From NCBI GenBank assembly GCA_037442365.1, contig JBBIQK010000007.1:1284-65283 (forward strand): a DNA stretch of 64,000 nucleotides, in the 5' to 3' direction. This document shows, in pieces, positions 836 to 27,945 of this stretch. Under the pieces are notes generated by a model. It searched no databases, was not told the DNA's origin, and worked only from the letters and a program-made list of their open reading frames with translations. Each line of letters starts with the position of its first letter. Position 1 is the stretch's first letter. This DNA is from Armatimonadota bacterium. GTDB lineage: Bacteria; Armatimonadota; Fimbriimonadia; Fimbriimonadales; GBS-DC. Both the position numbers and the translations under genes were made by a program.

Positions 836-853
836 GCCCGGCGCGGCAGAGGT

Positions 854-3079
854 CTACGCGCTCCGCGTAGAGGTCTCCGACGCGGCGTCAGCGAAGTCTT
901 CGGGGGCTTCAGAGGTCTCCCGATAGTCGCATTCGGCGTTGCTGCAGGCGACGATGCGCTGGCGGGCGCGTTTGAGGGTCTTTTCCACCAGCGGCGCGTT
1001 GCACTTGGGGCACAGCGCGCCCGTCGGCTTGTCCCATGTCAGCAGTGAGCAGCCCTTCGTCGTGCAACTGTAGAACACGCGCCCTTTTTTAGACTTGCGC
1101 TGCACAATCTCGCCCGCCTTGCACACGGGGCAGCGCGCGCCCGTCGCGCCTGCGGGCAGCGTCGTCTTGCAGTCGGGGTAGCGCGAACATGCCAGAAACT
1201 CGCCGTAGCGCCCCGTGCGCAGCACCATCGGCGCGCCGCAGGTCGGACACGCGCGGTCGGTCTCCACCACAGGCACCTCCACACGCTCGTCGCTGTTGCT
1301 GGCGACCTGCACCTGCTGCTGCATCGGCTCGTAGAACGCCCGCACCACCTGCACCCAGTCCGCCTTGCCCTCCTCGATTTCGTCCAGCTCCTGCTCCATG
1401 CGCGCCGTGAAGGGCACATCGAACAGCTCGGGGAAGTGCTTGACCAGGTAGTCGTTGACTGCCTCGCCCAGCGGGGTCGGTTTGAAGGCGCGGTTCTCCA
1501 GCACGACATACCCCCGCTCCTGAATCGTCGAGAGGATGGTCGCGTAGGTGCTGGGGCGTCCGATGCCGTTTTGCTCCAGCGTTTTGACCAGCGTCGCTTC
1601 GGTGTAGCGCGGGGGCGGTTGCGTGAAGTGCTGGCTGGGCGTCAGCTTCAGCAAATCCAGCAGCTCGCCCTGTTGCAGTGGCGGCAGGGGCGGGAGTTCC
1701 TCCTCGTCGCGCTCGGCGGTGTCCTTGCCTTCCTGATACAGGCACAGGAAGCCGTCGAACAGCACCACCGTGCCCGATGCGCGGAACAGGTAGTCGCGCG
1801 CGCGGATATTGACGCTGGTGACTTCCAGCTGCGCTTCCGCCATCTGGCACGCCACAAACCGCTTCCAGATGAGTTCGTACAGGCGGAACTGTTCGGGCGT
1901 CAGGTAGGGCTTCACGGCGTCGGGCGTGCGGTTCACATCGGTCGGGCGGATGGCTTCGTGGGCGTCCTGCGCGCTGGAGCGGGTCTTATACTGGCGCGGT
2001 TTGTCGGGCAGGTATTCGGGCGCGTAGTGGCTGCCGATGAACGCGCGCGCCATCTGCAGCGCCTCGTTCGAGAGGCGTACCGAGTCGGTGCGCATGTAGG
2101 TGATTAGCCCGACTGCGCCCTCCTCGCCCAGCTCGACGCCTTCGTAGAGCTGCTGCGCGATTTGCATCGTGCGCTTGGCGGAGTAGCCCAGCTTGCGCGA
2201 CGCTTCCTGCTGCAGCGTGCTGGTGATGAACGGCGGCGGGGGCGTGCGCCTGCGCTGGCGCTTCTCCACCGACTCCACGATATAGGTCGCGCCCTGCAGG
2301 TCGTTCAGCACCGCCTGCGCATCCGCTTCGGACTTGAGGTCAATCTTCGCGTTCCCTTTCTGGCGCAGCTCGGCGTCGAAGGGGAAGTGTTCCTTTTTTG
2401 GGGTGAGGGTAGCGGTGATTTTCCAGTACTCTTCGGGCACGAAGGCGCGGATTTCGCGTTCGCGTTCGACAATCAGGCGCACGGCGACGCTCTGCACGCG
2501 CCCTGCGCTGAGCGCGTTGCGTCCGCCGCGCAGCTTGCGCCATAGCAGCGGGCTAATCTGATACCCCACCAGCCGATCCAGCACGCGCCGCGCCTGTTGC
2601 GCGTTCACGCGATCCAGGTCTATCGCACGGGGGCTTTGCAGGGCGCGTTGCACCGCGCTGGCGGTAATCTCGTTGAACTCGATGCGCTGCGCGTGCTGCA
2701 GGTTCAGCGCCTGCTGGATGTGCCACGCGATGGCTTCGCCCTCGCGGTCGGGGTCGGTCGCCAGATACACGGCGGGCGCGCCCTGCGTCACCGTTTGCAG
2801 GCGTTTCAGCGTGTCCTTGCGGTCGGGCAGCGGGATGTAGGTCGGCTGGAACCTGTTCTCGACATCCACGCCCAGCTTGGATTTGGGCAGGTCGCGCACA
2901 TGCCCCATCGACGCCTCAATCGTGTAGGCGTTTCCCAGAATCTTCGCCAGCGTGCGCGTCTTGGCGGGCGACTCCACGATAATCACGGGCTTGCCCGACG
3001 GCGTGGGCGTCGCCCGTCTCGTGCGCGTGGACGCGCCCGTCTTGCGCGTGGTTCGTCTGGTGCGGGTGGTCTTCGCCAT
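854..3079 (-). CDS. topA: DNA topoisomerase I
   Basis: TOPRIM start VIIVESPAKTRTLAKILG, long type IA core, three C-terminal CxxC..CxxC zinc ribbons. Start placed at MAKTT (ATG 3079) behind GGGAGA. Confidence 0.9.
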   Translation of the reverse strand: MAKTTRTRRTTRKTGASTRTRRATPTPSGKPVIIVESPAKTRTLAKILGNAYTIEASMGHVRDLPKSKLGVDVENRFQPTYIPLPDRKDTLKRLQTVTQGAPAVYLATDPDREGEAIAWHIQQALNLQHAQRIEFNEITASAVQRALQSPRAIDLDRVNAQQARRVLDRLVGYQISPLLWRKLRGGRNALSAGRVQSVAVRLIVEREREIRAFVPEEYWKITATLTPKKEHFPFDAELRQKGNAKIDLKSEADAQAVLNDLQGATYIVESVEKRQRRRTPPPPFITSTLQQEASRKLGYSAKRTMQIAQQLYEGVELGEEGAVGLITYMRTDSVRLSNEALQMARAFIGSHYAPEYLPDKPRQYKTRSSAQDAHEAIRPTDVNRTPDAVKPYLTPEQFRLYELIWKRFVACQMAEAQLEVTSVNIRARDYLFRASGTVVLFDGFLCLYQEGKDTAERDEEELPPLPPLQQGELLDLLKLTPSQHFTQPPPRYTEATLVKTLEQNGIGRPSTYATILSTIQERGYVVLENRAFKPTPLGEAVNDYLVKHFPELFDVPFTARMEQELDEIEEGKADWVQVVRAFYEPMQQQVQVASNSDERVEVPVVETDRACPTCGAPMVLRTGRYGEFLACSRYPDCKTTLPAGATGARCPVCKAGEIVQRKSKKGRVFYSCTTKGCSLLTWDKPTGALCPKCNAPLVEKTLKRARQRIVACSNAECDYRETSEAPEDFADAASETSTRSA

Positions 3080-3231
3080 CGCAGTCTCCCAGTGCAGTAC
3101 GGGCAAGCAATTTACCTGATTGTGCGGGGGTGTGTCAAGGGAGCAAACGGCGTCCCTCCTCACACCATCCTTAACACACCCATAAACTCTCTGCAGGTAA
3201 AATTAGTTTACTTGAGAAACAGGAGAGCGTT

Positions 3232-4008
3232 ATGAGCTTGCGAACGCAGTTTCTGGCACTATTGAGCGCACTGGCGCTCACGAGCGCGGTTCACGCACAG
3301 TTGACAGACAAGGTGGAACGCGGCGGCGATTTCTCGATTCGCATCATCGACGGGAGTTATGTCCTCTCGGGCGCCCTGGGCGGCTCAGGCAGCTTCCGCT
3401 CCAGCGCGTACCGATTCCCCCTCCTGCCCAACGAGGGCTTGGACTGGCAACTGCGCGTGCGCGACCTGATTAACGCGATTGGTTCGGACTATATGCTCCG
3501 TTTCCACACCACGATTCTGCCCAACGGCGACATCCAGTGGGATATGGACGCCACGCCCAACGAATGCACCACCATTCGGCTGAGTGGTCAGGACTATCAG
3601 TTCCTGCTCACGCGCATCTCAGCGCGGTTCACCATGCGCCCCACGCCAATTGCGTGCCAGCCCGACCCGCATGCGGTACTCGGTCGCTCCGTGAGCGTGC
3701 AACTGGACGCCGTGGGCGGCGATGAGGCGAACTACCTGCACCTGGAGGGCTACTTCCTCGTCTGTCAGGAGAATGCGTCCTTCTTCACGCAGGGGGTGGT
3801 TTCTGGTCTGGTGGTGCGCGGCTACGGCGGCGGGCTGCCCAAGTCGCTGGGGAATGTGAACAACGACTGCATCGTGGACGACGCGGACCTGCTCGCCGTG
3901 CTGTTCAACTTCGGCGGGAGCGAGGCATCGACCGACACCAACGACGACGGCATCGTGGACGACGCCGATCTGCTCACGGTGCTGTTCAACTTCGGCACGG
4001 AGGGCTGA
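3232..4008 (+). CDS. secreted hypothetical protein with two C-terminal dockerin-like (EF-hand-type) repeats
   Basis: Signal peptide MSLRTQFLALLSALALTSAVHA. C-terminus NNDCIVDDADLLAVLFNFG .. DTNDDGIVDDADLLTVLFNFG. AGGAGA RBS before the ATG. Confidence 0.6.
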   Translation: MSLRTQFLALLSALALTSAVHAQLTDKVERGGDFSIRIIDGSYVLSGALGGSGSFRSSAYRFPLLPNEGLDWQLRVRDLINAIGSDYMLRFHTTILPNGDIQWDMDATPNECTTIRLSGQDYQFLLTRISARFTMRPTPIACQPDPHAVLGRSVSVQLDAVGGDEANYLHLEGYFLVCQENASFFTQGVVSGLVVRGYGGGLPKSLGNVNNDCIVDDADLLAVLFNFGGSEASTDTNDDGIVDDADLLTVLFNFGTEG

Positions 4009-4017
4009 GGATACACG

Positions 4018-4835
4018 ATGACTACACGGAAGTGCTTGCACCAGGGATTCACCCTCATCGAGCTGCTGGTCGTGATTGCGATTATCGCCATTCTGGCGGC
4101 GATTCTGTTTCCTGTGTTCGCGCAGGCGCGTGAGAAGGCGCGCCAGACGCAGTGCATCAGCAATCTGCGCAACTCGGCGACCGCCGCGCTGCTGTATGTG
4201 CAGGACTACGACGAGAAGTTCCCGATGCCGTTCTACTACACCATCGCGAACAACGCGCCCTGCGCTATGACGATGTTCACCATGATTGCGCCCTACCTCA
4301 AGAATCAAGAGGTGCTGCGCTGTCCTTCGGAGCCCGACGCCTACTGGAGGCAAGCTTCAGGGCGCTGGTGAGCGGCGGCGAGTGCGGCGACTTCACCAAA
4401 GCCAGCTACTCCTACAACTACTCCGTGTTCCGCACGGTGACCACCACACGCGATGTACTGAATCTGGCGGAAGTGCCGTTCCCTGCCGAGACCTCGATGA
4501 TTTTCGACGCGGACCTGATCCTGTTCGAGGGAACCTGTCGGAACGCGGTCGGCTTGCGGCAGGGAGATACGCCTGTGCGCCCGCGCCACAACGGGATGCT
4601 GAACGCCAACTATGTGGACGGGCATACGAAGGTAGTCAAAGCGGACTCGCGCGCGCCGCTCACGGACTGCACCTACACCATCCGCCGCGCCGTGAACCAG
4701 GACACCCAGCGCAGCCCGTTCTGCATCGGGTCGGGTCCCTACACGCGCCGATGCGACCAGCAGACGCCGCTGCCCTGCGCGACGGAACTGCGCGGAATCA
4801 TCGATCAGGACAGTCAGGGCTTGTGTCGGCGGTAG
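4018..4835 (+). pseudogene. prepilin-type N-terminal cleavage/methylation domain, H-X9-DG family protein, split by a frameshift near 4340-4370
   Basis: Frame 1 gives [38 protein letters not shown], then a stop at 4369-4371. The frame one base back continues [35 protein letters not shown] (the H-X9-DG motif) to 4835. Confidence 0.7.
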
Positions 4836-4887
4836 GGACGCGAACCCTTGTCTGAACCGAACAGCCACCTGCGGGCGCGGTTGGGGG

Positions 4888-7062
4888 CTAAAACTCGCTC
4901 CCAACTGCGCCTACGGGTTGACCCAGTTGCCCAAAGCCGAAGCGCGAGAAGCTCGGCAACGCCTTCAGGCGCACGAACACCTGCAGCCCCGTGTCGCGGC
5001 GGAAGCCGAACGGATTGTCGATATAGCGCACCTCCAGCTCGGCGCAGTGCAGGTCGTACACCCACAGCGCCTGCCGCGACTCAAACCGACTCAGATAGCC
5101 GTTGTATTGCGCGAGGAATGAGATTCGCGAGCGTCCCCACTTGAGGGCGTCCACGCGCAGGAACACGCTGCCCCAGCGGGCGCGTTCCGGGTCGTAGCGC
5201 GCCGCCAGCGCCAGCTGCGAGTCGCCGAACCGCCATAGCAGGTCGGTCTGCAGGCTGCGCCAGCGTGCCCGATTCGGGTCGTAGCGCAATTGCAATCGCC
5301 CGCGCAGCCAGTCGGCAGGCGCGTACTCCAGATTCAGGTTCAGCAGGCTCCACGGGTCGCGCCCGCTCTCCGACGCGAGCAGGTCGTAGCTGGTCTGTGC
5401 GCCGAGCGTCCAGCCGCCGCCGAAACTCAGGCGCAGCTCCCCGCTCAGCAGGTTATACACGCCTGTCCGATCCAGTCCCAGCGGGCTGTAGCCGTAGGGG
5501 CGCAGGTAGTTCCAGCGCAGGCTGAGGCTGGAGCGCGCGCTTAGCGGCGTGCGCTGCTCCAGCGCGGACTGCAACAGGTACTGCGCCGTGTCGTCGCTGT
5601 AGAAGGTCTGGCGAAAGCGATAGCTCCATGCAAGGCTGGAGCGGTTTTCCGCTTCGCGCGGGGGGCGTCCTGCGCGTCCCTGCCACTCGAATGCGTACCG
5701 CTCGCGCGCGAGACGCGTCTGGAAGCCCTCCGCGAAGCGTCCGATGCTCAAACGCAGTTGCGAGTCGGGCACGCCCAGCACACGCCCCGACGCCTGCAGG
5801 CTCAGTTCAGGCAGCCGCTCCAGCCCGCCGAACACGCTTGACTCGCCCACGGGCACGAACCGCTCGAAGTCCAGTTGCAGGCTTGCCTCGCGCGCCAGCC
5901 CGTAGCGCAGGTTCGCCCGCAGGTTCCACTGGCGGTTGCCCGTGCGCGTATCGTCGAACCGGTTCTCGAACTCCAGATACTCGCCCGACAGGTTGCTCTG
6001 CAGGCGTCCGATTCGGCGCGTGTCCTGCAGGGCAAGCGTGCGGTTGATGTTCTCGAACGCGCCCGTGCGGTTGCGGCTCTCGGCGAAGCTCAGCCCCGTC
6101 TGTCCCGATGGCGCGGGCAGCGTCCAGTCGGTGCGCAGGCTCCACGCCGTGTTGTCGCCGAACAGCAGGTAGCTGTTGCGTCGGTACTCGGCGTTCCAGC
6201 GGGTCTGGAGCGCGCCCAGCGGCTGCGCGTGCTGCCAGCGCCCCGTGAGCGAGTCGGCGCGCTGGCGCAGGTCGCGCAGCAGGTACAGGTTCAGGTCGCC
6301 CCGCGCGTACTGCTGCTGAAGGTTGATTCCCAGCCCACGCTTCTGCATGAGATCCAACCGCGCGCTGCCCACCGCGCCCTGCGCCAGCAGGTAGGCGAGC
6401 GCATAGCGGAGGTAGAAGCCCTCCTCTTCCGTGTAGCCTGCGTCGGGCAGGGGCGAACTGTCGCCCTCGCGCAGCGGCACAATCACATACGGCAGGCGCA
6501 GCACCGTGCGCCCCAGAATGCTCAGGCGCACCTCGCGCAGCACGGCGCGCGCGCCGGGCGTCGCCTCCAGCGTGCGTGCGCTCCAGTGAAAATGGGGATG
6601 CTCCAGCCCGCAGGTGGTCGCCGTGCAGGCTTCCGCATGGATGCGGTTCTCCTCGCCCTCGATGCGCGCTCCCTGCAGATGCAGGCTCTCCGAAAGGCGG
6701 TTCTCGGTGAAGGCGGGGGTGAGTTCCGCGCGCCCCTGCAAGAGCGTCCAGCGGCGTGTGCGCGTGTTCAGCGCCAGCGAGTCGCCCTGCGCCCGCAGCC
6801 GCTCGCTCGTCAGGCGCACCCCCTCAAAAAAACGGTACTCGGCGTCGCGCGTGCGCCCTTCAAACCGCGCGCTCTCCAGCAGGTACTCGCGCCAGCGGGC
6901 GGTGATCGATTCGCCCTGCGCCGTGTCCGACGCGCTATCGTAGCGGAACGCCTGCTGTGTTTCGAACTGGATGGGTTCTCCCTGTGGCTGCCCGAACGCG
7001 CAGGCGACGGCGACCTGCGCCGTCAGCAGCCCAATCCCGCGAATACCCCGATACGCCCGCAT
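4888..7062 (-). CDS. lptD: LptD/OstA-like outer-membrane LPS-assembly protein
   Basis: Signal peptide. OstA-like N-domain followed by TTCGLEHPHFHWSARTLE..LPYVIVPL, a long run of alternating beta-strand-like sequence, and a C-terminal aromatic residue (..GSEF). Confidence 0.6.
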   Translation of the reverse strand: MRAYRGIRGIGLLTAQVAVACAFGQPQGEPIQFETQQAFRYDSASDTAQGESITARWREYLLESARFEGRTRDAEYRFFEGVRLTSERLRAQGDSLALNTRTRRWTLLQGRAELTPAFTENRLSESLHLQGARIEGEENRIHAEACTATTCGLEHPHFHWSARTLEATPGARAVLREVRLSILGRTVLRLPYVIVPLREGDSSPLPDAGYTEEEGFYLRYALAYLLAQGAVGSARLDLMQKRGLGINLQQQYARGDLNLYLLRDLRQRADSLTGRWQHAQPLGALQTRWNAEYRRNSYLLFGDNTAWSLRTDWTLPAPSGQTGLSFAESRNRTGAFENINRTLALQDTRRIGRLQSNLSGEYLEFENRFDDTRTGNRQWNLRANLRYGLAREASLQLDFERFVPVGESSVFGGLERLPELSLQASGRVLGVPDSQLRLSIGRFAEGFQTRLARERYAFEWQGRAGRPPREAENRSSLAWSYRFRQTFYSDDTAQYLLQSALEQRTPLSARSSLSLRWNYLRPYGYSPLGLDRTGVYNLLSGELRLSFGGGWTLGAQTSYDLLASESGRDPWSLLNLNLEYAPADWLRGRLQLRYDPNRARWRSLQTDLLWRFGDSQLALAARYDPERARWGSVFLRVDALKWGRSRISFLAQYNGYLSRFESRQALWVYDLHCAELEVRYIDNPFGFRRDTGLQVFVRLKALPSFSRFGFGQLGQPVGAVGSEF

Positions 7063-7147
7063 CAGCCAATTGATAGACGCGCCGAATCGGGGAGAATATA
7101 CCTGATGGGAGGCTGGCGGTGGCGTGTGAAGGCTTTCAGTTCAGACC

Positions 7148-7175
7148 TTGACAGAATGCATTTGCGAGGTAGAAT
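7148..7175 (+). promoter_or_regulatory. sigma-70-type promoter of the STAND gene (-35 TTGACA, 16-nt spacer, -10 TAGAAT), 9 nt before the ATG
   Basis: TTGACA at 7148-7153, TAGAAT at 7170-7175, ATG at 7185. No Shine-Dalgarno sequence fits in between. Confidence 0.6.
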
Positions 7176-7184
7176 CCTGTTGCA

Positions 7185-10100
7185 ATGTTTGCTGGCGCTG
7201 GAAACTTTGTAAAGGACGCATGCGCGACTGCAGGCATGTCTCTGGGGAGTGTGCTGGGCGGACCCATCGGCGGCTTGGCTGGCGGGTTCATCGGCAGCGT
7301 GCTGGGGGAGATTGTTGTGCAATCGGTAGCAGACCTCTCCCGGGAGAAGCTTCAGGACTCGTTGCGCCGCTTCCGTCCCTCTCGAAACGCCGATATAGAG
7401 CGCGCTATTCTCGAGGCGCTTCGCGGCGCACTCCAGCACTCTCGCGACGCGCTGCGCCAGCAACCGGGCGACGCAACCAGCCTCCCGCGGGGGCTTTCTA
7501 CTGAAGAGGAAGCGCTCTTCAAAGCGTGGGACAGCAAACTTCAAGCCGCCCTCAAGGGCGCCGATGCACAGGTACACGAAGCGGTGGGCGAACTCTCTCC
7601 CGACGCGCCCGCGCTCGCAGCGTCCCCCGACGAGACGCTTGCCGACTGGCTACTGCGCTTGCTCCAGCGGCTGGCAGAGCGCGAGACGCTCCCTGAACCG
7701 CTGCGCGAGTTCCTTCAAGCCCGACTGCCCCAGCGCTTTCGCCACGAGTTTGCCCAGCTGCTTAAAGACCCACGGCATCAACGGGCGTGGATTGCCTTCC
7801 AGAAGCAGATGCTGGACGCAATTTTACAGGCAATCCACGAAATGCAAACGCTCACGCCCGAAATCGCGCAGGGGGTTCAGCTCCTGCAGGAGCGCCAGAT
7901 GCAGCTCACACAGGCGGTCGCCGAATGGCTCGAATCGGAACCTGACCGCTGGCAGGAACGCGCTCACGAGCTGGCGCAAACCATCACGGAACCCATCCTG
8001 CACGCCATCCACGACACCCGTGAGCGCGTGGAGTTTATCGTCAACCTGCTGGGCGAGAAGCACCGCTACCGCTTGCTGCACGAGGGCACGCTCCGATTCC
8101 TGCAATCTTACGCACAGGGAGTCTTCGTGGGACGGCAGGAGATACTGGCGAATCTGGAGGCGTTTCTGACAACGCGCTCCAGCGGGCTGGCGGTGATACA
8201 CGCGCCCGCAGGCTACGGCAAAACCCGCCTGATGATGAAACTGCTGAACCGACTGCAAGCGCGTGGCGACGCCGATGTCGCGTTCCACTTCTTCTCCACA
8301 CGCGAGGAGCTGGGCGGGCTGGGCACGCGCACGGAATACGCCTACGCACACCTGCTGCTGCAACTGGGGCACATCACCAACACAAAGGTTTATCTGCCCG
8401 ATGGCAACCCCGACGAACTCCGCGCCCAGCTGCTGTATGAGATTCGCGATTTGAAGCCCCCGCGCGGGCGCGTCGTGCTGCTGATAGACGCGCTGGACGA
8501 GGCGGACGCGCCTGTGATGCACCTACCGCTGCCCGAAACTTTGCCCGACGGCGTATTCGTGGTGGTGAGCGCGCGCTGGGACAATCGCCCGGAACCGCCT
8601 CCCTACCTTGAGGCGTGGCTCGCACGCGCCGACGCCCACTACCCACTGGACGCCCTGAGCGAAAGCGACCTGCGCGACTGGGTGCGCAACATCGAGCCGC
8701 TCCGCGCCTGTGCCGACGACCCCGACTTCATCCGCCAGCTCCACCAGCGCACCGAAGGGCTGACGCTCTACGCCCGCTACCTGCTGGACGAGCTGAGCCA
8801 GTCCCCAAACCCGAAGCAGGCGCTCCAGAACGCGCCGATGGGCATTCAGAAATACATCGAGCATCAGATTCGCCAGCTGGCGTCGCATGTGTCCAACGCG
8901 CAGGGGATACGGCGGATGTTCGCCCTGCTGACCGTCGTCAAGGCGCCTCTGCCTCAGAGCGATTTGGAAACCCTCTGCGAGGTCTCCGTCTGGGATTTGC
9001 AGAACCTGCCCCAGCCTGTGCGCCGCTGGTTCCTCTGCTCCAAGGCGGGCTGGCAGTTTGCACACCCCCTGCTGGCGATAGAGTTTCGGAATGCGCTGGG
9101 TAGAGAACCCCTGCTGATGGAACAGAAACTGATAGACTACTCTGCCCGCTGGAAGGAACACAAGAGCCACTATGCCCTGCGCCACTACGCCGCGCACCTG
9201 ATGGAGCGCGCCCAGCACGAGAGCGCGGCTGCCGAAGCGCTCTACGCGCTGGCGACGGATGACACCTTCTTGCAGGCGCAGCGTGAAGCCTTCCCCACCG
9301 AGCCAGACCTGCCCCTGAAAGCGATTCAGCAGGCGATACAGGTCGCCAGCCAGCGCGACGAAGCCGTGATATTGGCGCATCTGATGCTGCGCCACGCCGC
9401 GATTGCAGACGAGATACGCTTCGCCCAGTCGCCCTACGAGATCTGGAGCGAAAAGGGTGACTTGCACCGTGCTCTCAGGGTTGCCAACCTGCATAATCCA
9501 CGAATGCGCGCTCTTCACTGCCTTCTGTTAGCGGCGGCACTCTCGGAACCTGAGCATCGCAAATTTATCATTAGAAATCTGTGCGATTCAAACATCCCAT
9601 TTTACAAAAGAAGATGGCAAGAGCGATTTATTCGCATCATAGAGCAGATAATTGGAAACGAAATACAAAATGAGTGCCCTGAACTGATAACAAAAATGCT
9701 CCCGAACGGACAGTCGCCTGTACAGCCTCCACTACCCGAAGAATCTGCACAAAACACTGAAGGGATTACACAGTCCGTGGTTGACGCCTCTGATGGGTAT
9801 CAACAGATAAATAAGCATTTGGATGACGCTCAGAGATTCCTGCATAACCACAGTCTCAATGATGCCCTGAACAGCCTCAACAGGGCACTAAAAATTGTCC
9901 CTGAAATTAGTTTCAAGCTTTCTTCTTTTTGGACAAAGATAGTGATTAGTATAGCACGGGCGCCATCGCGACGCCAAAAATTAAAAATTCTTAACGAATT
10001 GGTAAGAGAAGCTCAGCAAGTTCCCGAACTCGAGTGGCAAGCGCGCATACTGGCAGCGATTGCTGAAGCAAGGGCAAACATAATATTCCCGAGAAAAGAC

Positions 10101-10811
10101 AATCAAATTTTCATGCAAGCATTTCGGTGTACCTCAGAGATTCGCGACCCGTTGGAGAAAGCCTGGGCGTTACGAACAGTGGTTAACACCGTTCCACGAA
10201 TACGACAGGTCAATTTGCGGAAACAAGTCTTACAACAAGCGGAAGAAATCGCGACTGCGATGGAGGACTCGGAAGGGAAGCTGGAAGCGCTGCGTGCGAT
10301 TCTCGTAGTACTGGCACAGATAGGTGAAGTAAATCGCGCGAAAAATGTTTTGAAACGGGCAAAGAATGTTGCAAGAGTATTACAAAACCCAGAAGAAAAA
10401 GAAAATGCATTAATAGCAATCGAATTGGCATTGGACGACAAATTCGATGATTCGCTAAACATTATACAAGGTTTAAAAGATATTTACTGGAAAAACTTAA
10501 GCTTGTGGACGATTGCTACCTTCTTTGCTACACAGCAGAAGTTTTCCGATGCTGTGTTTACGATTGAACAGCTTTATTCTGATCAACATGAAGTTTTTCC
10601 CAAGATTGCGAATGATATGCTTGAAGCGGGCGATCGGCGCTATTTCAAGCAGCTCCTGCTCCCGTGCGCCTACTTCAGAGTGTCTGCGCTGGAGATGTGC
10701 GCCGCGCTGATCCGCGCCTATCCCGAACAGGCGGAGGCGATTGGCGAAGTGGTACTGGAGTTCGTCGGCGCGCAGGGGGCTGACACGGAAGCGCCCGAAC
10801 CCGCGCCGTAG
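7185..10811 (+). CDS. STAND/NACHT-like P-loop NTPase with N-terminal glycine-zipper segment and C-terminal helical (TPR/HEAT-like) repeats
   Basis: N-terminus GSVLGGPIGGLAGGFIGSVLG. FVGRQEIL..VIHAPAGYGKTRL is the Walker A (nt 8203-8226). VVLLIDALDEAD is the Walker B (nt 8472-8507). The C-terminal ~500 aa is repetitive alpha-helical sequence. Confidence 0.7.
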   Translation: MFAGAGNFVKDACATAGMSLGSVLGGPIGGLAGGFIGSVLGEIVVQSVADLSREKLQDSLRRFRPSRNADIERAILEALRGALQHSRDALRQQPGDATSLPRGLSTEEEALFKAWDSKLQAALKGADAQVHEAVGELSPDAPALAASPDETLADWLLRLLQRLAERETLPEPLREFLQARLPQRFRHEFAQLLKDPRHQRAWIAFQKQMLDAILQAIHEMQTLTPEIAQGVQLLQERQMQLTQAVAEWLESEPDRWQERAHELAQTITEPILHAIHDTRERVEFIVNLLGEKHRYRLLHEGTLRFLQSYAQGVFVGRQEILANLEAFLTTRSSGLAVIHAPAGYGKTRLMMKLLNRLQARGDADVAFHFFSTREELGGLGTRTEYAYAHLLLQLGHITNTKVYLPDGNPDELRAQLLYEIRDLKPPRGRVVLLIDALDEADAPVMHLPLPETLPDGVFVVVSARWDNRPEPPPYLEAWLARADAHYPLDALSESDLRDWVRNIEPLRACADDPDFIRQLHQRTEGLTLYARYLLDELSQSPNPKQALQNAPMGIQKYIEHQIRQLASHVSNAQGIRRMFALLTVVKAPLPQSDLETLCEVSVWDLQNLPQPVRRWFLCSKAGWQFAHPLLAIEFRNALGREPLLMEQKLIDYSARWKEHKSHYALRHYAAHLMERAQHESAAAEALYALATDDTFLQAQREAFPTEPDLPLKAIQQAIQVASQRDEAVILAHLMLRHAAIADEIRFAQSPYEIWSEKGDLHRALRVANLHNPRMRALHCLLLAAALSEPEHRKFIIRNLCDSNIPFYKRRWQERFIRIIEQIIGNEIQNECPELITKMLPNGQSPVQPPLPEESAQNTEGITQSVVDASDGYQQINKHLDDAQRFLHNHSLNDALNSLNRALKIVPEISFKLSSFWTKIVISIARAPSRRQKLKILNELVREAQQVPELEWQARILAAIAEARANIIFPRKDNQIFMQAFRCTSEIRDPLEKAWALRTVVNTVPRIRQVNLRKQVLQQAEEIATAMEDSEGKLEALRAILVVLAQIGEVNRAKNVLKRAKNVARVLQNPEEKENALIAIELALDDKFDDSLNIIQGLKDIYWKNLSLWTIATFFATQQKFSDAVFTIEQLYSDQHEVFPKIANDMLEAGDRRYFKQLLLPCAYFRVSALEMCAALIRAYPEQAEAIGEVVLEFVGAQGADTEAPEPAP

Positions 10812-10871
10812 CTGGTCGCGTGCCTGGGCGCGCCTTGCTTACTGCATGAGCCCTATGAGTATCCACCCTAC

Positions 10872-11963
10872 CTACCCCCAGTACCGCTCCCAGAAACTGA
10901 TTTGCTGCTGGGCGAAGCGGCGGGCGTAGTCCAGGTCGGCGGGGTCAATCGCCGGCGGCGCGTGGTCGGTCAGGGTCGGGATGCGGTCGTGCGCCTCGAA
11001 AGTCTCAGGCGTCGCGTCGGGGAGGTCTACGCCCACAAGCGTCGCAATCGCAAGCGTCCACATACGCGGCACGGTCGTCAGATTGTAGCCCCCGCCGCCC
11101 AGCGCAACCATCGGGATACCCAGCGACTTCGCCCACTGAACGGCGCGCAGCCAGCCCTGCGCCGTCAGACACAGGTGTCCCAGGGGGTCCAGAGAGTGCG
11201 GGTCGCAGCCCATCTGCAACACCAGCGCATGCGGCTGGAACCGTTCGAAGGCGCGGGGTACGACCTGCTCAAACGCCTCCCACCAGATGGCATCGTCCGT
11301 GTAGGGCGCGAGCGGGATGTTGACCGAGGTCCCTTCCGCGTCGCCCTCGCCCAGCTCGTTCACCGCGCCTGTGCCCGGAAAGAGCCACTGTCCGCCCTCG
11401 TGAATCGAGACGGTCAGCACGCTGGGGTCGCGGTAGAAAATCCACTGCACGCCGTCGCCGTGATGCAGGTCGATGTCCAGGTACGCCACGCGCTCGAACC
11501 GTTCGCGCAGAATGTGAACTGCAATCGCGGGGTCGTTGAAGATACAAAACCCGCTGGCGCGGTTGGGCAGCGCATGGTGCAGCCCGCCCGTGATGTTAAT
11601 TGCCAGCGGCGCGCCGTCGCGCACGGCGCAGGCGGCGGCGACCGTCGCGCGGGTGTACGCCAGCGCCGCCTCCCACATCCCCACAAACGGCGGGTTGTCG
11701 CCGTAAGGCGAGAAGCCCCAGCGATGTGCGTCCATCAACGGCGCGCCCGCGCTGAGCTGGCGCACCACCTCGATATATTCAGGCGTATGCACGCGGCGCA
11801 ACGCCGACTCGTCGATTTCAGGCGGCGTCTGCCAGTCCAGACGGTCGCTCAGCCCATAGGCGTCCATCAGGGCGCGCAACAACACCAGTCGCTGCGGCTT
11901 CAGCGGATGCGACTCGCTGAACTGGTACTGCTCAATCGCCGAATCGTAAAAAAACGGCGTCAT
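10872..11963 (-). CDS. histone deacetylase-family protein (AcuC/acetoin utilisation-type deacetylase)
   Basis: GGLHHA, DIDLHHGDGVQ and GGGGYN motifs of class I HDAC/AcuC. ATG at 11963 sits 7 nt after a TATACT box. Confidence 0.8.
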   Translation of the reverse strand: MTPFFYDSAIEQYQFSESHPLKPQRLVLLRALMDAYGLSDRLDWQTPPEIDESALRRVHTPEYIEVVRQLSAGAPLMDAHRWGFSPYGDNPPFVGMWEAALAYTRATVAAACAVRDGAPLAINITGGLHHALPNRASGFCIFNDPAIAVHILRERFERVAYLDIDLHHGDGVQWIFYRDPSVLTVSIHEGGQWLFPGTGAVNELGEGDAEGTSVNIPLAPYTDDAIWWEAFEQVVPRAFERFQPHALVLQMGCDPHSLDPLGHLCLTAQGWLRAVQWAKSLGIPMVALGGGGYNLTTVPRMWTLAIATLVGVDLPDATPETFEAHDRIPTLTDHAPPAIDPADLDYARRFAQQQISFWERYWG

Positions 11964-11970
11964 CACAGGC

Positions 11971-11976
11971 AGTATA
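11971..11976 (-). promoter_or_regulatory. -10 box (GGTATACT), 7 nt upstream of the HDAC-family ATG
   Basis: Reverse complement reads caGGTATACTgcctgtgATG. Confidence 0.45.
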
Positions 11977-11996
11977 CCTGCAGGGGCGCGTGCAGG

Positions 11997-12851
11997 CTAC
12001 GACTGGATCGCCGCCACCTCCAGCCACTCGATCCCGTCCCAGCCGTGAAACCGCTTCTGCATCACCTCGAGGGCTTCGGGGTTGTTGTCCACCAGAATGA
12101 ACCGCCTGCCCAGCTCCAGCGCGGCGACGCCCGTTGTGCCGCTGCCGGCGAAAAAGTCCAGCACCAGATGCTCCGGGTGCGACGAGGCGCGGATAATTCG
12201 GCGTAGAATGCCCAGCGGCTTCTGAGTCGGGTAGCCCATGCGCTCCCTGCTGTTGGTCGGCACAATCGTATGCCACCACACATCGGTCGGCAGCTTGCCC
12301 CGTCGCGCCTTCTCTTCGCCCACCAGCGCAGGCGCCATGTACGGCACACGGTCAATCGCGTCTGGATTGAACACATAGCGGTCGGGGGCTTTCACATAGA
12401 GCAGGATGGTGTCGTGCTTGGGGGGCCATTTGCGGCGGGGGCGTCCGCCATAGTCATATGCCCAGATAATCTCGTTCAAAAAACATGCCCGCCCGAAAAT
12501 CGCGTCCAATAGCACTTTACAGTAATGCGCCTCGCGGTAGTCGATGTGAAAGTAGAGGCTGCCGTGCGGCGCAAGCACCCGATACGCCTCCTGCAGGCGC
12601 GGCTCCAGAAAAGCGAGGTAGTCGTCGAAAATATCGATGAAGCTGCGCGAGCCGAGCGTGAGCGTGCGGTAGCGGTTGCCCCCAAAGCCCACCCGATCGC
12701 CCGACTCGGAGCGCACCGTGCGCAACGCGGTGTAGCGCTGCTGCTTGCCCGTGTTGAAGGGCGGGTCGATGTAAATCAAATCCACCGATTCGGTCGGCAG
12801 GGTCTGCAGCACATGCAAGTTGTCCCCGAAGTAGACGCGCCCACGCCACAT
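11997..12851 (-). CDS. beta-class DNA methyltransferase (N6-adenine or N4-cytosine)
   Basis: Motif IV IYIDPPFNTG lies near the N-terminus. Motif I VLDFFAGSGTTGVAA lies near the C-terminus. Confidence 0.8.
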   Translation of the reverse strand: MWRGRVYFGDNLHVLQTLPTESVDLIYIDPPFNTGKQQRYTALRTVRSESGDRVGFGGNRYRTLTLGSRSFIDIFDDYLAFLEPRLQEAYRVLAPHGSLYFHIDYREAHYCKVLLDAIFGRACFLNEIIWAYDYGGRPRRKWPPKHDTILLYVKAPDRYVFNPDAIDRVPYMAPALVGEEKARRGKLPTDVWWHTIVPTNSRERMGYPTQKPLGILRRIIRASSHPEHLVLDFFAGSGTTGVAALELGRRFILVDNNPEALEVMQKRFHGWDGIEWLEVAAIQS

Positions 12852-12878
12852 CGCGGCAGAGGATACCCACTCGCGCGG

Positions 12879-13694
12879 CTAATTGTTCGGCTGAATCGTC
12901 ACCTTGCGGGCGTAGTCGTTGCCCTCCTCGTCGCGGGTGCGGTGAATCGTCGCGCGGGCAGGCGGCTTGATTTGTTCCACCTTCACGGACTTGCCCCTGA
13001 AGGTGAACTCGGTGTTCTCATCGTAGCGGATGTCGCGCACATCGCCCGCGCGCGTGAGGACCCTGAGAATCTTTTTCTGGCGGTCGATGCCCTGAATCGT
13101 GCCCTGCAGCGACGGGAGCGTGCGCTCGCGTCCAATCTGGGCGTCCTTTTCGGTGTTGCTGACCGACAGGAGCATCGTGTCGAGGTTCGACAGCAGGCGC
13201 GGCGCGAGATAGAGCGTCTCGCCGACGACGAAGTCCTCCAGCGTCGCGGGCTTGCCGTCGCGCTCGAATCGGGTTTTGGGAGTGAATTTGTAGGCGAATC
13301 GGCTTTTGTCGGGCAGCTCGATGAGCAGGTAGTTGTCCTCCACGCCGACGAGCGCGCCCCTGACGATGCCGCGGCGCACCTTCTCCAGCCATTTCCATGT
13401 GTCGGGGTCTGCCATCTCGCGCACGACGGGGCGCACCTGCACACCGACGCTGACCCGCGCCATCACCTGCTTGCCCTCCATCTGCCGAAACGCCTCGATG
13501 TCGGCAGGCTGCTTGCCCATCCACAGGCGCGGCTTCTTGTGCAGGGTCGCGTTCATATCGGGCTTGCCCGCCCGCTTGAGGACAATCGCGCCGCCTTCGG
13601 GGTCGAACTTCGCCAGCGTCGCCAGAAAAATCTCCGTTTCCGCCCAACCAGCGAGAACCGCCATGCAGAACGCCACACACGCCAGCATGCGCAT
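12879..13694 (-). CDS. secreted hypothetical protein
   Basis: MRMLACVAFCMAVLAGWA signal peptide with GAGGTG upstream. No recognisable family. Start is uncertain (ATGs at 13700, 13694 and 13688). Confidence 0.5.
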   Translation of the reverse strand: MRMLACVAFCMAVLAGWAETEIFLATLAKFDPEGGAIVLKRAGKPDMNATLHKKPRLWMGKQPADIEAFRQMEGKQVMARVSVGVQVRPVVREMADPDTWKWLEKVRRGIVRGALVGVEDNYLLIELPDKSRFAYKFTPKTRFERDGKPATLEDFVVGETLYLAPRLLSNLDTMLLSVSNTEKDAQIGRERTLPSLQGTIQGIDRQKKILRVLTRAGDVRDIRYDENTEFTFRGKSVKVEQIKPPARATIHRTRDEEGNDYARKVTIQPNN

Positions 13695-13753
13695 ACCCAT
13701 CACCTCGCTGGCGGACGATTCGCGCCCTCCGCGCGGTTTCCTGCCCTGTGAGG

Positions 13754-13759
13754 TATAAT
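13754..13759 (+). promoter_or_regulatory. -10 box (GGTATAAT), 8 nt upstream of ATG 13768
   Basis: Sequence gaGGTATAATctttctggATG. Confidence 0.45.
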
Positions 13760-13767
13760 CTTTCTGG

Positions 13768-14688
13768 ATGAGCCGACACGAAAAACCCACCAGCCGACGC
13801 GACTTCCTGCGCGAGGGGTTGCGCTCGCTGGTGAACGCAGGCTTTGGGGGCGTCTTTGAGAAGCTGGAGCGGGTAGGCGAGCTGATGGAGCGGGGCGAGC
13901 CGAAACCCGCGCCGCTGATGCCCGTTCTCAGCTGCGAAAGCCGCGCGTTGCACCCCCTGCTGGAGTCGGGGCAACTCAGCCTCGAAACCTGCGGCGCGAT
14001 GCTGAACGAGCTGGATATTCAGGGCGTGAGCCTGAGCGACCGCCACATCAGCAGCCTCCATCCCCGTGCGCTGGAACACCTGCGCGAGGGCTTCCACCGC
14101 CACGCGATTGCCATCACAGGCGTGATGGTCTCGGAGCCTGTGAACCTGAACGACGAGCCGAGCCTGAGCCGACGCCTGGACGAAACGATTGAACGCCTGC
14201 AGGCGGCGGCGATTCTGCAAGCCCCGCTGATTCGGCTGCACCTGAGCGGCGAGCGCGACGACGAGCTGTTCGAACGCGGCGCGCTGTTCCTGCAGCGACT
14301 GCTGCCTGAAGCGCGGCGACGGCGCGTACGCATCGTTATCGAGAACCGCGAGGGCGTCGGACGACGCCCTGAGCTGCTGGTGAACCTGATACGGGCGACC
14401 GACCTGCGCTGGATTGGCGCCTGCTACGACTTCGGACACGGCGCGCCCGAACGATACTACGACGCCGCGCGCATCCTCGCGCCCTACGCCTTCCATGTGC
14501 ATGCCAAAAGCCGCGCCTTCGACCCGCGCGGCGAAGAGACAACGATTGAGTACGGGCGTGTGCTGAGCATCCTGCGCCTTGCCAGCTATGTCGGCGCGCT
14601 GTCAATTGAGTATCTCGGCGAGGACGACCCGCTGGAAGGCGTGCGACGAACGCGCGATTTAATCCGACGCCACTGGCGCGCCTACTGA
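13768..14688 (+). CDS. xylose-isomerase-like TIM-barrel protein (sugar phosphate isomerase/epimerase family) with Tat-type signal
   Basis: The N-terminal SRRDFLREGL twin-arginine motif is clear. The family assignment is from general sequence character only. Confidence 0.5.
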   Translation: MSRHEKPTSRRDFLREGLRSLVNAGFGGVFEKLERVGELMERGEPKPAPLMPVLSCESRALHPLLESGQLSLETCGAMLNELDIQGVSLSDRHISSLHPRALEHLREGFHRHAIAITGVMVSEPVNLNDEPSLSRRLDETIERLQAAAILQAPLIRLHLSGERDDELFERGALFLQRLLPEARRRRVRIVIENREGVGRRPELLVNLIRATDLRWIGACYDFGHGAPERYYDAARILAPYAFHVHAKSRAFDPRGEETTIEYGRVLSILRLASYVGALSIEYLGEDDPLEGVRRTRDLIRRHWRAY

Positions 14689-14690
14689 CG

Positions 14691-16076
14691 ATGGAGATTG
14701 TGGAGCGCGTGCGCGCGACCCTCCGCGAGCGACGCCTGCTGCCCCCAGATGGCGGTCTTGTGATTGTCGGCTATTCGGGCGGGGCAGACTCCACCGCGCT
14801 GCTGCACCTGCTGACGCGCCTGCAGGACGAGTTCCGCATCCACCTCCACGCGGCGCACCTGCATCACGGCATGCGCCCCGAAGCGGACGACGATGTGCGC
14901 GTGTGCCAGTCCGTGTGCGAGCAACTGCAGGTTCCCCTGCACATTGAGCGCGTCGATGTGCCCGCGCGGGCGCAGGCGGAGCGCATGTCGCTGGAAGAGG
15001 CGGGGCGCTACGCCCGCTACGAGTTCTTCGAGCGGCTGGCGCACGCGCTGGACGCCGTCGCCGTCGCGCTGGCGCACACCCGCGATGACCAGATAGAGAC
15101 CCTCCTGATTAACCTGCTGCGCGGCACGGGACCGCGCGGGCTGTGCGGGATGCCCTACCAGCGCGACCGCATCATCCGCCCGCTGCTCGACGCGACGCGC
15201 GCCCAGACGCACACCTACTGCGCGGCGCACGGGCTGCCGACCGTGTTCGACCGTACGAACCTGGACCCGCATCAGCTGCGCCGTCGCGTGCGCATGGAGC
15301 TGCTGCCCTTGATGCGCGACCTCTCCCCTGCCGTCGACCGCCATCTGCTGCGCCTTGCAGACATTCTGGCGCAGGAGGAGGCGTGGTGGGCGACCGCGCT
15401 GGAGTGCGGAACCATAGCTGCTGAAGCTTCGCTTCAGCACTCCACAATCGCGCGGGATGCCTTCACTCAACTTCACCCCGCGCTGCAGCGGCGCGTGTTG
15501 CGCGAGTGGTTGCGCAGGCGGCTGGGCGCGTTGAACCTCCCGCCGTATGAGATTCTGGAGGGCGTCCGCCGCGCCACGCTGGACGGCAGGCGCACTTCGT
15601 GGCAACTCACAGACGCCCTGCGCCTGACCACCGACGAGACCGCACTGCGCCTGCACGAAGCATCGCCCCGCCCTGAACCCTATGAGTACCCCGTTGCGCT
15701 GGAGACGCCCGTGCTGATTCCGCAGGCAGGCGCATGGCTGGAGGCGCGCCTGCAAAACGCCCCGCCCCCATCGCTTGAGCCAGCGTCCCACGAGGCGTAC
15801 CTCGACGCCGACGCCGTGCAGGGGCAGCTGTGCGTGCGCAACGGACGCGCAGGCGACCGATTCCAGCCGCTGGGCATGCACGCGCCCAGAAAACTGAGCG
15901 ACATCTTCATCGACCGCAAAATCCCCCGCGCTGAACGCTGGCGACTGCCCCTGCTGTGCGACGCGGCGGGTATTCTCTGGATCCCGGGCTACACGATTGC
16001 CGCGCGCGCCCGTATCACGCCCGACACCCGACGCGTGCTGCATGTCGCCCTGCGCCGAAACGACACCGAAGCGTAA
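14691..16076 (+). CDS. tilS: tRNA(Ile)-lysidine synthase
   Basis: PP-loop VGYSGGADSTALLHLL, an HxxHxxR region, and a C-terminal domain with GxxKLSDxFIDxKIP. Confidence 0.9.
   Translation: MEIVERVRATLRERRLLPPDGGLVIVGYSGGADSTALLHLLTRLQDEFRIHLHAAHLHHGMRPEADDDVRVCQSVCEQLQVPLHIERVDVPARAQAERMSLEEAGRYARYEFFERLAHALDAVAVALAHTRDDQIETLLINLLRGTGPRGLCGMPYQRDRIIRPLLDATRAQTHTYCAAHGLPTVFDRTNLDPHQLRRRVRMELLPLMRDLSPAVDRHLLRLADILAQEEAWWATALECGTIAAEASLQHSTIARDAFTQLHPALQRRVLREWLRRRLGALNLPPYEILEGVRRATLDGRRTSWQLTDALRLTTDETALRLHEASPRPEPYEYPVALETPVLIPQAGAWLEARLQNAPPPSLEPASHEAYLDADAVQGQLCVRNGRAGDRFQPLGMHAPRKLSDIFIDRKIPRAERWRLPLLCDAAGILWIPGYTIAARARITPDTRRVLHVALRRNDTEA
15401..15443 (+). repeat. degenerate in-frame copy (copy D) of the 52-nt double-hairpin element, inside tilS
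   Basis: GGAGTGCGGAAccatagctGCTGAAGCttcGCTTCAGCACTCC. It shares both ends and the second hairpin with the copy at 35755-35806 and is translated as ECGTIAAEASLQHS. Confidence 0.7.
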
Positions 16077-16088
16077 GCGTCAGACGAT

Positions 16089-16715
16089 GTGATGGAACGG
16101 GCGTTGGCGATGGATAACCTGTACGCTGGAGCGGTAGACCGCACGCTCACCGACGAGCAACTCGCAGCGAAGGCGCGCGAGGGCGACGCTGCCGCGATGG
16201 AGGAACTCTACCTGCGCTATCGGCAGCCTGTGTTCCGAATCGTGTACCGCTCCACGCGCAACACCGACGAGGCGGAAGACATCGTGCAGGATGTGTTCCT
16301 GAAGGCGTTTGAACGCCTGCACACCTTCCGCGAGCAGAGTCGGTTCAGCACATGGCTGATGCGCATCGCGCTGAACCTATGTACCGACCGCGCGCGCATG
16401 CGCCAGCGCCGACAGGAGCTGCTGGAGCGCGAGGCGGAGCATAAACTGGCGTGGAGCCATCCCGAATCGCCCGACCCGATGGAGACCGTGCAGGAGAATG
16501 CGTTCAACGAGGCGTTTTATACCGCGCTGCGCCAGCTGCCCGACCACCATCGGCAGCTGATTGTGCTGCGCGATCTGGAAGAGATGGACTACGAGGAGAT
16601 TGCCCGCATTCTGGGCACGAGCGTCGGCGCGGTGAAGCTGCGGGTGATGCGCGCCCGACGCGCGTTCAAAGTAAAGCTGGAACCGCTGCTGAAAGCGATT
16701 GGAGCCTTAGAATGA
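16089..16715 (+). CDS. ECF-type RNA polymerase sigma factor
   Basis: Region 2 DEAEDIVQDVFLKAFERL, FSTWLMRIALNLCTDR, and a region 4 HTH (DYEEIARILGTSVGAVKLRVMRAR). Confidence 0.9.
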   Translation: MMERALAMDNLYAGAVDRTLTDEQLAAKAREGDAAAMEELYLRYRQPVFRIVYRSTRNTDEAEDIVQDVFLKAFERLHTFREQSRFSTWLMRIALNLCTDRARMRQRRQELLEREAEHKLAWSHPESPDPMETVQENAFNEAFYTALRQLPDHHRQLIVLRDLEEMDYEEIARILGTSVGAVKLRVMRARRAFKVKLEPLLKAIGALE

Positions 16716-18485: not shown

Positions 18486-18486
18486 G

Positions 18487-19905: not shown

Positions 19906-19939
19906 GGGGCTTATTCCACATGCAGCGATTCAAAAGACA

Positions 19940-19965
19940 CCCCCCGAACGACAGTATTCAGGGGG
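19940..19965 (-). terminator. rho-independent terminator candidate after the pilin-like/small-TM operon
   Basis: On the minus strand: CCCCCTGAA-tactgtcg-TTCGGGGGG followed by TGTCTTTTG. Confidence 0.5.
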
Positions 19966-19987
19966 TAGGACGGAAGGGAAAGAACAC

Positions 19988-21114: not shown

Positions 21115-21120
21115 AATGGG

Positions 21121-21126
21121 ATTATA
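21121..21126 (-). promoter_or_regulatory. -10 box (TATAAT), 6 nt upstream of ATG 21114
   Basis: Reverse complement reads cgtcTATAATcccattATG. Confidence 0.4.
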
Positions 21127-27943: not shown

Positions 27944-27945
27944 GC

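Follow-up and report, generated by a model that had tools for sequence, protein, structure and literature searches.

The stretch of DNA analysed here (the window) is 64,000 nucleotides (nt) from a contig of an Armatimonadota bacterium. It carries, at 7185–10811 on the forward strand, an open reading frame (ORF) of 1208 residues plus stop that encodes a NACHT-type STAND (signal transduction ATPase with numerous domains) protein resembling NLR (nucleotide-binding leucine-rich repeat) receptors. About 1.1 kb in the C-terminal part of this gene is abruptly AT-rich. Comparison with relatives indicates that this part is probably an exchanged sensor cassette on a resident NLR-like chassis, and that its AT-richness is most likely a property of the block rather than the imprint of a donor.

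An in-frame low-GC island in a STAND gene

A two-change-point maximum-likelihood fit of G+C content over 7185–12500 placed the edges of the island at 9560 and 10624, with a GC of 0.425 inside and 0.642 outside. These edges practically coincide with 9560–10620, where an initial annotation, made from the letters of the sequence, had placed the island; its hand counts of 22/60 G+C for 9601–9660 and 40/60 for 8521–8580 are exact. The G+C profile runs at 0.60–0.70 up to ∼9400, at 0.35–0.51 from ∼9500 to ∼10600 and at 0.63–0.69 thereafter. The composition is also unique in the window, as that annotation had stated. The two lowest 300-nt segments of the 64 kb both lie in the island (0.357 at 10320–10619 and 0.417 at 9561–9860), and the next-lowest spots, 21011–21310 and 27666–27965, are far milder at 0.49–0.50.

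The drop is equally evident in a codon-position scan. G+C at third codon positions (GC3) is 0.417 for 9558–10622, compared with 0.836 ± 0.043 (minimum 0.611; z = −9.7) in 420 segments of 355 codons taken from other ORFs, and the first and second positions are lowered as well. The encoded protein is shifted in parallel: the share of Asn goes from 2.4 to 6.8%, that of Ile from 4.5 to 10.1%, and that of Lys from 2.6 to 6.2%. The reading frame stays open throughout: a 387-codon (1161-nt) stretch covering the block is free of in-frame stops against an expectation of 22.9, every one of 20,000 shuffles had at least one stop, and the remaining five frames hold 9–24 stops each. An open-frame island of this composition is far beyond chance.

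Such a pattern could arise if reads of a lower-GC organism with a homologous gene had been joined into the contig. The metagenomic origin of the DNA leaves room for a chimera of this kind, and the boundaries fall in conserved sequence where assemblers can cross over. However, a separately built Logan contig (SRR11582161_993), which may share the same reads, is 100% identical over 4120–20051 with both boundaries included, and both junctions are in frame. Moreover, other genomes, assembled independently, are built alike, with the lowered-GC block in the corresponding place; one of them, KatS3mg018, is labelled a complete genome. An assembly artefact is therefore very unlikely.

Replacement of the sensor block among relatives

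The locus of Fimbriimonadales bacterium KatS3mg018 (AP024673.1; L006) is syntenic and colinear with the window. The two sequences are 95.2% identical over 851–9446 and 96.1% identical over 10594–14384. The intervening segment, 9447–10593 in the window, measures 1147 nt here but 3356 nt in KatS3mg018, and the two share no detectable similarity at the DNA level. In KatS3mg018 it codes for over 20 repeats, each 33–38 residues long and some present as identical copies; tandem units of 114 and 99 nt match at 92–94%.

The same pattern was found in two further comparisons. In an Armatimonadota metagenome-assembled genome (L001, identical to L007), the DNA of the conserved N-terminal part, hereafter the chassis, is ∼83% identical to the window; similarity ends at window position 9449 and resumes at 10587. 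Protein identity is 80–90% over residues 250–750, ∼22% over 760–1130, and ∼80% over 1135–1196. Two syntenic contigs from one metagenome (L003 and L004) are 95–97% identical save for 1.3–1.4 kb of the orthologous gene. Their proteins are 96–100% identical up to residue 885, 20–30% identical over 890–1355, and 100% identical over the last 30 residues. At least three sensor alleles occur in the clade of these two contigs on chassis that are 95–99% identical, and a pairwise table gives chassis identities of 0.94–0.99 against block identities of 0.22–0.65.

Replacement of the block alone, between the chassis end and a conserved C-terminal cap, is thus recurrent in the family. The initial annotation had proposed a sensor swapped onto a native NTPase, and all three comparisons support this; the orthologues do not all carry the same block, as they would if it were an old feature inherited throughout the lineage. 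A metagenome scan with the chassis end gave no match, and one with the family alignment yielded only one more close locus (L079).

Two of the relatives show further peculiarities in the gene. The KatS3mg018 orthologue (L006 7001–12837) consists of two ORFs, 7001–11362 (1453 residues) and 11359–12837 (492 residues), which overlap at an ATGA inside the repeat array; the split is either real, with a frameshift or pseudogene, or a long-read error in the near-identical 99–114-nt repeats. In L005 (6001–10326; JGI 3300059601, Ga0587146_01531), the orthologue P0003 is interrupted at about residue 802, the chassis/sensor boundary, by an insertion sequence (IS) with DDE_Tnp_1 and DUF4096 ORFs (8425–9236). 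A 337-residue ORF at 9313–10326 represents the remaining sensor, with near-identical repeats and the conserved cap.

Breakpoints of the probably exchanged tract

The breakpoints are resolved to within ∼100 nt in the three comparisons. In a gapped sliding profile, identity between the window and KatS3mg018 is 93–100% up to ∼9340 and ∼0.70 at 9370–9450; it is then lost and comes back from 10594. Over 9363–9449, third-position identity is 0.52 compared with 0.93 upstream, the protein is still family-typical, and GC3 is 24/29 (0.83). Low third-position identity in a family-typical protein points to recombination with a diverged homologue rather than to point mutation in place, and the exchange probably had its left end at 9363–9449. 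At this junction, KatS3mg018 and L001 resemble each other ∼47 nt further than either resembles the window, a weak hint that the window tract has a left breakpoint of its own.

Recombination would accordingly have exchanged the tract from ∼9363/9447 to 10593, probably acting within the conserved stretches that flank it, the chassis end and the cap. Such an exchange would leave genomes that are 95–97% identical elsewhere with unrelated sensor arrays, and the low-GC island would be one allele of a cassette-like polymorphism. The word 'recent' seems to apply to the exchange only, relative to the ∼5% divergence of the flanks; the block itself looks old or fast-evolving.

Origin of the AT-rich composition

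The initial annotation had read the AT-richness as a sign of recent recombination or horizontal acquisition. The first half, a recombined sensor on a native chassis, agrees with the comparisons above. The second half, in its strong form, holds that the block came recently from a genome of ∼40–45% GC, such as a mat cyanobacterium, and has kept the unameliorated composition of its donor. Several features make this attractive: the GC3 of 0.42 against 0.84 in the host, the amino-acid usage shifted to AT-rich codons, the sharp boundaries, and the abundance of the family in Coleofasciculus, Microcoleus, and similar genera with ∼45% GC. Some family members are also low in GC as whole genes relative to their flanks (L033 and L036).

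The synonymous sites of the block tell otherwise. Base composition at four-fold degenerate sites (with their G+C as GC4) was as follows:

Window chassis: A.06, C.42, G.47, T.06; GC4.88
Window island: A.31, C.18, G.29, T.22; GC4.47
KatS3mg018 (L006) block: A.29, C.21, G.27, T.22; GC4.49
L004 block: A.27, C.22, G.30, T.21; GC4.52
Cyanobacterial blocks: approximately A.38, C.16, G.14, T.31

The window, KatS3mg018, and L004 blocks are unrelated in sequence yet have the same four-fold composition (chi-square p = 0.93; p = 0.12 when the L001 and L003 blocks are added). The composition of the island therefore matches that of sister alleles in related high-GC genomes. Cyanobacterial blocks differ, with G at 0.13–0.17 against 0.29 here and T at ∼0.3 against 0.22. 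The tract beside the block is informative as well: a GC3 of 0.83 over 9363–9449 is incompatible with the island GC3 of 0.42 (P = 8e-6), and the supplier of the block, whatever it was, had a GC-rich chassis.

Searches for a donor returned none. The island alone, run against a word index of 5.8 billion proteins, gave only two weak tetratricopeptide repeat (TPR) matches, and an exhaustive HMMER search of 1.84 billion representatives (of ∼15 billion proteins) gave nothing above 29–32% identity. The best protein match is 29% identical (E 2.7e-30), and the ten best are scattered over Leptospiraceae, Chloroflexota, cyanobacteria, and actinobacteria, on different chassis. No DNA match to the island was found in phages, plasmids, or viral contigs. 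The search for closest relatives and their taxonomy, which the initial annotation had suggested, thus leads to no particular source. Import from a low-GC genome is unlikely, and the AT-richness is most likely not the imprint of such a donor, as judged from these comparisons.

In three loci of other lineages, L033 (Abditibacteriaceae), L036 (Blastocatellaceae), and L037 (Oscillatoriaceae), the whole STAND gene, with its chassis, is 7–11 percentage points lower in GC than its flanks, which suggests whole-gene transfer there.

A lowered-GC sensor block looks instead like a lineage-wide feature, even though the block itself differs in sequence from one relative to another. In a set of 44 loci, block GC3 follows that of the chassis (r = 0.77, slope 0.64), and it lies below chassis GC3 in 11 of 11 high-GC hosts by a mean of 0.18, the window being the most extreme (−0.38). 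Several cyanobacterial blocks are also well below the GC4 of their own chassis (for example L043, 0.61 to 0.31). Compared with its sister alleles, the window block has a still higher overall AT content, which comes from an additional drift in amino-acid composition (towards Lys, Asn, Ile, and Phe); its F/Y/M/I/N/K content is 0.29 compared with 0.17–0.19. A separate idea, that the lowest-GC blocks are those lacking recent repeat amplification, found no correlation among the 11 high-GC loci (rho −0.12, p 0.72).

For the conserved chassis (7245–9362), substitutions were polarised by parsimony with L001 as the outgroup. Changes from GC to AT outnumber the reverse by 29 to 5 on the window branch and by 32 to 14 on the KatS3mg018 branch (pooled, 61 to 19, in a gene with a GC4 of 0.88), for an implied equilibrium GC of 0.25–0.46. 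The total is 81 polarised changes, being 82 less one on the window branch that was not between GC and AT. Either the current GC is off its substitution equilibrium, or many of the changes are young polymorphisms.

These data suggest a route to the AT-rich block. Sensor blocks would have been substituted far more heavily than the chassis, whether they represent old allele classes or evolve fast. AT-biased substitution in the lineage, acting on so heavily substituted a block, would bring its synonymous sites near a GC4 of ∼0.5 while the chassis stays at 0.76–0.88. Possibly the force that keeps GC3 high, be it selection or GC-biased gene conversion (gBGC), has little effect on blocks whose divergence prevents internal recombination. 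In bacteria, a mutational bias towards AT that is countered by selection or gBGC is known (PMC2936529, PMC4450053). The present case resembles it in the excess of GC-to-AT changes in a GC-rich genome and in the lower GC3 of a region expected to recombine poorly with its alleles; it differs in that the contrast lies inside one gene and has kilobase-sharp edges. As a tentative proposal, the sensor array may be a recombination-isolated, fast-turnover cassette whose synonymous sites have relaxed to an AT-biased mutational equilibrium (GC4 ∼0.5 compared with 0.76–0.88).

Several points weigh against an exchanged cassette with AT-richness of its own. A pool of lower-GC cassettes shared within the clade would give the same four-fold composition. 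The GC effect is not uniform, as three high-GC family members (L046, L025, and L045) show only small deficits, and the deficit does not correlate with repeat homogeneity (the rho of −0.12 above). The substitution flux comes from 81 changes in one gene with a 17%-diverged outgroup, a design that inflates GC-to-AT changes in GC-rich DNA. Recombination is deduced from sequence comparison and the donor allele was not found; the extra similarity between KatS3mg018 and L001 at the left junction, by which the event might be polarised, extends over only ∼47 nt. Finally, as to the putative defence role, no PADLOC model matches the gene above noise and its neighbours are housekeeping genes.

Domain architecture of the protein

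The gene and its upstream signal are laid out as follows, all on the forward strand:

7148–7175: promoter-like site, TTGACA-16-TAGAAT, recognised by consensus matches only (11/12) and ending 10 nt before ATG 7185
7185–8120: N-terminal all-helical domain, with a glycine-zipper-like hairpin (residues 9–47, nt 7209–7325) followed by a helical bundle; presumed effector
8124–8687: NACHT-type P-loop NTPase (residues 314–501)
8688–9362: post-NTPase helical/putative winged-helix region, the conserved chassis end; DNA 93–100% identical to KatS3mg018
9363–9449: transition zone, protein family-typical (…LMLRHAAIADEIRFAQSPYEIW), DNA 74% identical to KatS3mg018
9450–10593: sensor block, DNA unalignable with either close relative
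9560–10624: low-GC island proper, from the maximum-likelihood change-points (GC 0.425)
9705–9767: predicted disordered linker (residues 841–861, NGQSPVQPPLPEESAQNTEGITQSV) between the chassis-proximal helices and the solenoid
9768–10593: alpha-solenoid of degenerate TPR-like helical-hairpin repeats, ∼33–40 residues each
10594–10808: conserved C-terminal cap (…EAGDRRYFKQLLLPCAY…CAALIRAYPEQAEAIGEVV…), where DNA similarity to both relatives resumes

The NTPase is recognised above cut-off by the Pfam models PF24883 NPHP3_N (36.0 bits, cut-off 24.8), PF13191 AAA_16 (33.6, cut-off 32.6), and AAA_22; PF05729 NACHT scores 24.7 bits, just under its cut-off of 26.7. The Walker A motif APAGYGKT (residues 340–347, nt 8202–8225) satisfies GxxxxGK[ST], and G343, G345, K346, and T347 are invariant in alignments of 17 and 21 sequences. 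The Walker B motif DALDE (residues 435–439, nt 8487–8501) lies within LLIDALDEAD, with D435, L437, and D438 invariant. According to Kibby et al. (bioRxiv 10.1101/2022.07.19.500537), NACHT proteins are told apart from the remaining STAND clades by a D[GAS]hDE Walker B signature, which D435-A436-L437-D438-E439 fits.

An AlphaFold2 (AF2) model, built with 21 homologues from the gene-caller product P0001, has a mean pLDDT (per-residue confidence) of 77. It shows in order a helical N-terminus, an alpha/beta NTPase, helical and putative winged-helix modules, a disordered linker, and a helix-hairpin solenoid running to the C-terminus. The alpha/beta core is followed by helices and a short beta-hairpin (about residues 590–625 of P0001). 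The linker call comes from pLDDT values below 50 at P0001 residues 824–844, and regular helix pairs at pLDDT ∼70–90 occupy residues 844–1181. Foldseek with the whole model returned the Avs3-terminase complex first, and then SAMD9, PH0952, a wheat resistosome, and the apoptosome Dark; a phmmer search of PDB sequences with the protein matched nothing.

The N-terminal domain has weak matches to the Pfam families C19orf12, DUF456, and Gly-zipper, all under cut-off, and Pfam, NCBIfam, and PADLOC give only sub-threshold matches of the glycine-zipper type. The AF2 model of residues 1–312 (pLDDT 61, low confidence) has no fold match in the PDB (best E 0.35). The G-x3-G-rich hairpin at residues 9–47 prompts the guess that this domain may be membrane-active.

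The island is predicted, from profiles and the model, to encode a repeat solenoid that would be a putative ligand sensor. Sensor-block protein identity is ∼22% to KatS3mg018 and ∼22–31% to the protein P0002. A repeat hidden Markov model (HMM) built from relatives matches residues 986–999, 1026–1045, and 1077–1093 (E 8.6e-4). Pfam TPR matches in the window allele are below threshold (solely TPR_14, E 0.034, 15.3 bits against a cut-off of 23.5); relatives are annotated with TPR_12/TPR_30. The family profile finds the helical-repeat proteins TON_1535 (1.2e-15) and CTPR as well as PH0952, a STAND-TPR protein, and the island has multi-stretch matches to the C-termini of other large repeat proteins. 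The cap is also found in distant family members. Tandem Repeats Finder and repeat searches detected no DNA-level tandem repeats and no meaningful inverted repeats in the island.

Another reading is that the window allele is a nonfunctional sensor that decays under relaxed constraint and drifts towards an AT-rich mutational equilibrium. Its array is the shortest, its match to the family repeat HMM the weakest (E 8.6e-4 compared with 2.5e-12 for P0002), its F/Y/M/I/N/K content the highest and its GC3 deficit the largest among the 44 loci; two relatives are visibly disrupted, KatS3mg018 by its split into two ORFs and L005 by the IS. Yet the 387 stop-free codons, the regular helical hairpins of the model, and the conserved cap downstream, still in frame, are hard to reconcile with decay, which is distinctly unlikely.

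Gene start and genomic setting

Homologues align from residue 1 when the protein is started at 7185, which makes ATG 7185 the likely start. The gene caller placed the start of P0001 (1191 residues) at 7236, 17 codons downstream, probably 17 residues too short. A transcript from the promoter-like site at 7148–7175 would be leaderless or nearly so.

The STAND gene is flanked by topA (topoisomerase I), hypothetical genes, a histone-deacetylase-family gene, and a DNA methylase gene. These neighbours and the colinearity with KatS3mg018 indicate that it is resident on an Armatimonadota chromosome, and as far as the flanking genes tell it is not within any obvious mobile island. The divergent upstream neighbour (4888–7062, reverse strand) encodes 724 residues with no Pfam match at all and is kept at the same position in KatS3mg018 (L006 4704–6878). 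In L003 and L004 (∼5222–5915), the STAND gene lies directly 3′ of a gene for an AbiEii/DUF2204-like nucleotidyltransferase and a 69-residue ORF. This pair is toxin-antitoxin-like and hints at a defence-type neighbourhood, which the window lacks.

Short repeats in several hypothetical proteins encode a dockerin-like motif, D-x-N-x-D-G-x-V-D-x-x-D-L-L-x-V-L-x-x-F-G. They lie in the window at 3845–3997, 38428–38494, and also ∼20919–21090, are 75–94% identical, and have copies in L001 and L006; scattered blastn matches between the loci are due to these segments.

Discussion

By its motifs, and apparently also by its fold, the gene belongs with the NLR-related (NACHT) genes of bacteria. If it works as Avs and bNACHT proteins do, the solenoid would bind a phage or other foreign protein, binding would release the NTPase for oligomerisation, and the putative N-terminal effector would then be activated. 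Exchange of the block between conserved arms would re-target the receptor and leave the signalling chassis untouched. The sensor and defence functions are in this sense inferred from better-known systems.

Avs sensors bind phage proteins directly. Among known structures, Foldseek places PDB 8dgc, in which Avs3 has terminase bound, first for the full-length model (E 5.8e-10), and both proteins combine a STAND NTPase with a long helical-repeat sensor. However, the resemblance is confined to domain order and local folds, hence the low TM-scores (0.16), and the present protein has no PADLOC Avs match and no nuclease, protease, or SIR2 effector. In PADLOC-DB as a whole, Avs included, the best model is mad8 (E 0.0013, covering the P-loop only), and none matches the island. 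The 'antigen-receptor type' and 'hybrid' C-terminal classes of bNACHT proteins (Kibby et al., bioRxiv 10.1101/2022.07.19.500537) share the tripartite layout and the D[GAS]hDE signature with our protein, and the 'small distinct C-terminal domain' of their hybrid class has its counterpart in the conserved cap. Among the differences, none of the tested bNACHTs is detectable as a sequence relative, this protein scores just under the Pfam NACHT cut-off, its N-terminal domain is not a known enzyme, and its role in defence is putative. It belongs to none of the tested or PADLOC-listed families and represents an uncharacterised one.

Fungal NLRs of the HET-E/HET-D type carry highly internally conserved repeats with repeat-driven allelic hypervariability (PMC4986451, PMC12222747). 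As in those proteins, allelic hypervariability here sits chiefly in the repeat domain at the C-terminus of a NACHT protein, and the KatS3mg018 and L003 alleles carry near-identical 99–114-nt tandem units, as expected from unequal crossing-over. In contrast, the window allele is without DNA-level repeats, whole arrays are replaced between conserved flanks, and the repeats are TPR-like rather than WD40 or ANK.

Targeted diversification of the block in situ, by a system like a diversity-generating retroelement (DGR), by deaminase-driven hypermutation, or by exchange with silent cassettes, would also confine hypervariability to the sensor. Some STAND NTPase sensors of multicellular bacteria are diversified by DGRs (PMC10907252). 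Diversification is focused on the C-terminal sensor in both cases, the family described here is also abundant in filamentous cyanobacteria, and the same synonymous-site composition recurs in independent blocks. But no second copy or template of any part of the island was found in the 64 kb (blastn with word size 7, and tblastn), a result that speaks against both a DGR template and a silent cassette close by, and there is no reverse transcriptase among the precomputed Pfam matches for 4120–20051, the only part scanned. The variable tract is a helical-repeat array of 1.1–3.4 kb and not a C-type-lectin variable region of ∼100 bp. At four-fold sites, the shifts of A/T and G/C affect both strands, without the one-sided signature of strand-specific deamination. 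Diversification of this kind is very unlikely. With neither DNA repeats nor a template copy, neither HET-type repeat turnover nor a DGR appears to fit the window allele, for which exchange of a whole cassette is the reading that we favour.

Variable C-terminal sensors are already known for bacterial NLR-like proteins. In the literature searched, we found no description of strain-level replacement of a whole array at a fixed locus or of a consistent synonymous-GC drop in sensor blocks. Replacement of an entire sensor array between conserved arms at the strain level is rarely documented, and the alleles compared here are natural chimeras, with the same chassis and different sensors, available for experiments on specificity. 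The analysis also cautions that an intragenic low-GC block need not imply import from an AT-rich donor. It offers a compositional signature for finding such modules in GC-rich genomes and may help to find out what keeps GC high in bacteria. If the sensor array is indeed a recombination-isolated cassette, a GC3 cliff inside a gene would serve as a general signature, readable from sequence alone, of hypervariable immune-sensor modules in GC-rich bacteria, and the gene would provide a within-gene natural experiment in which a recombination-dependent force, gBGC or selection, maintains high GC.

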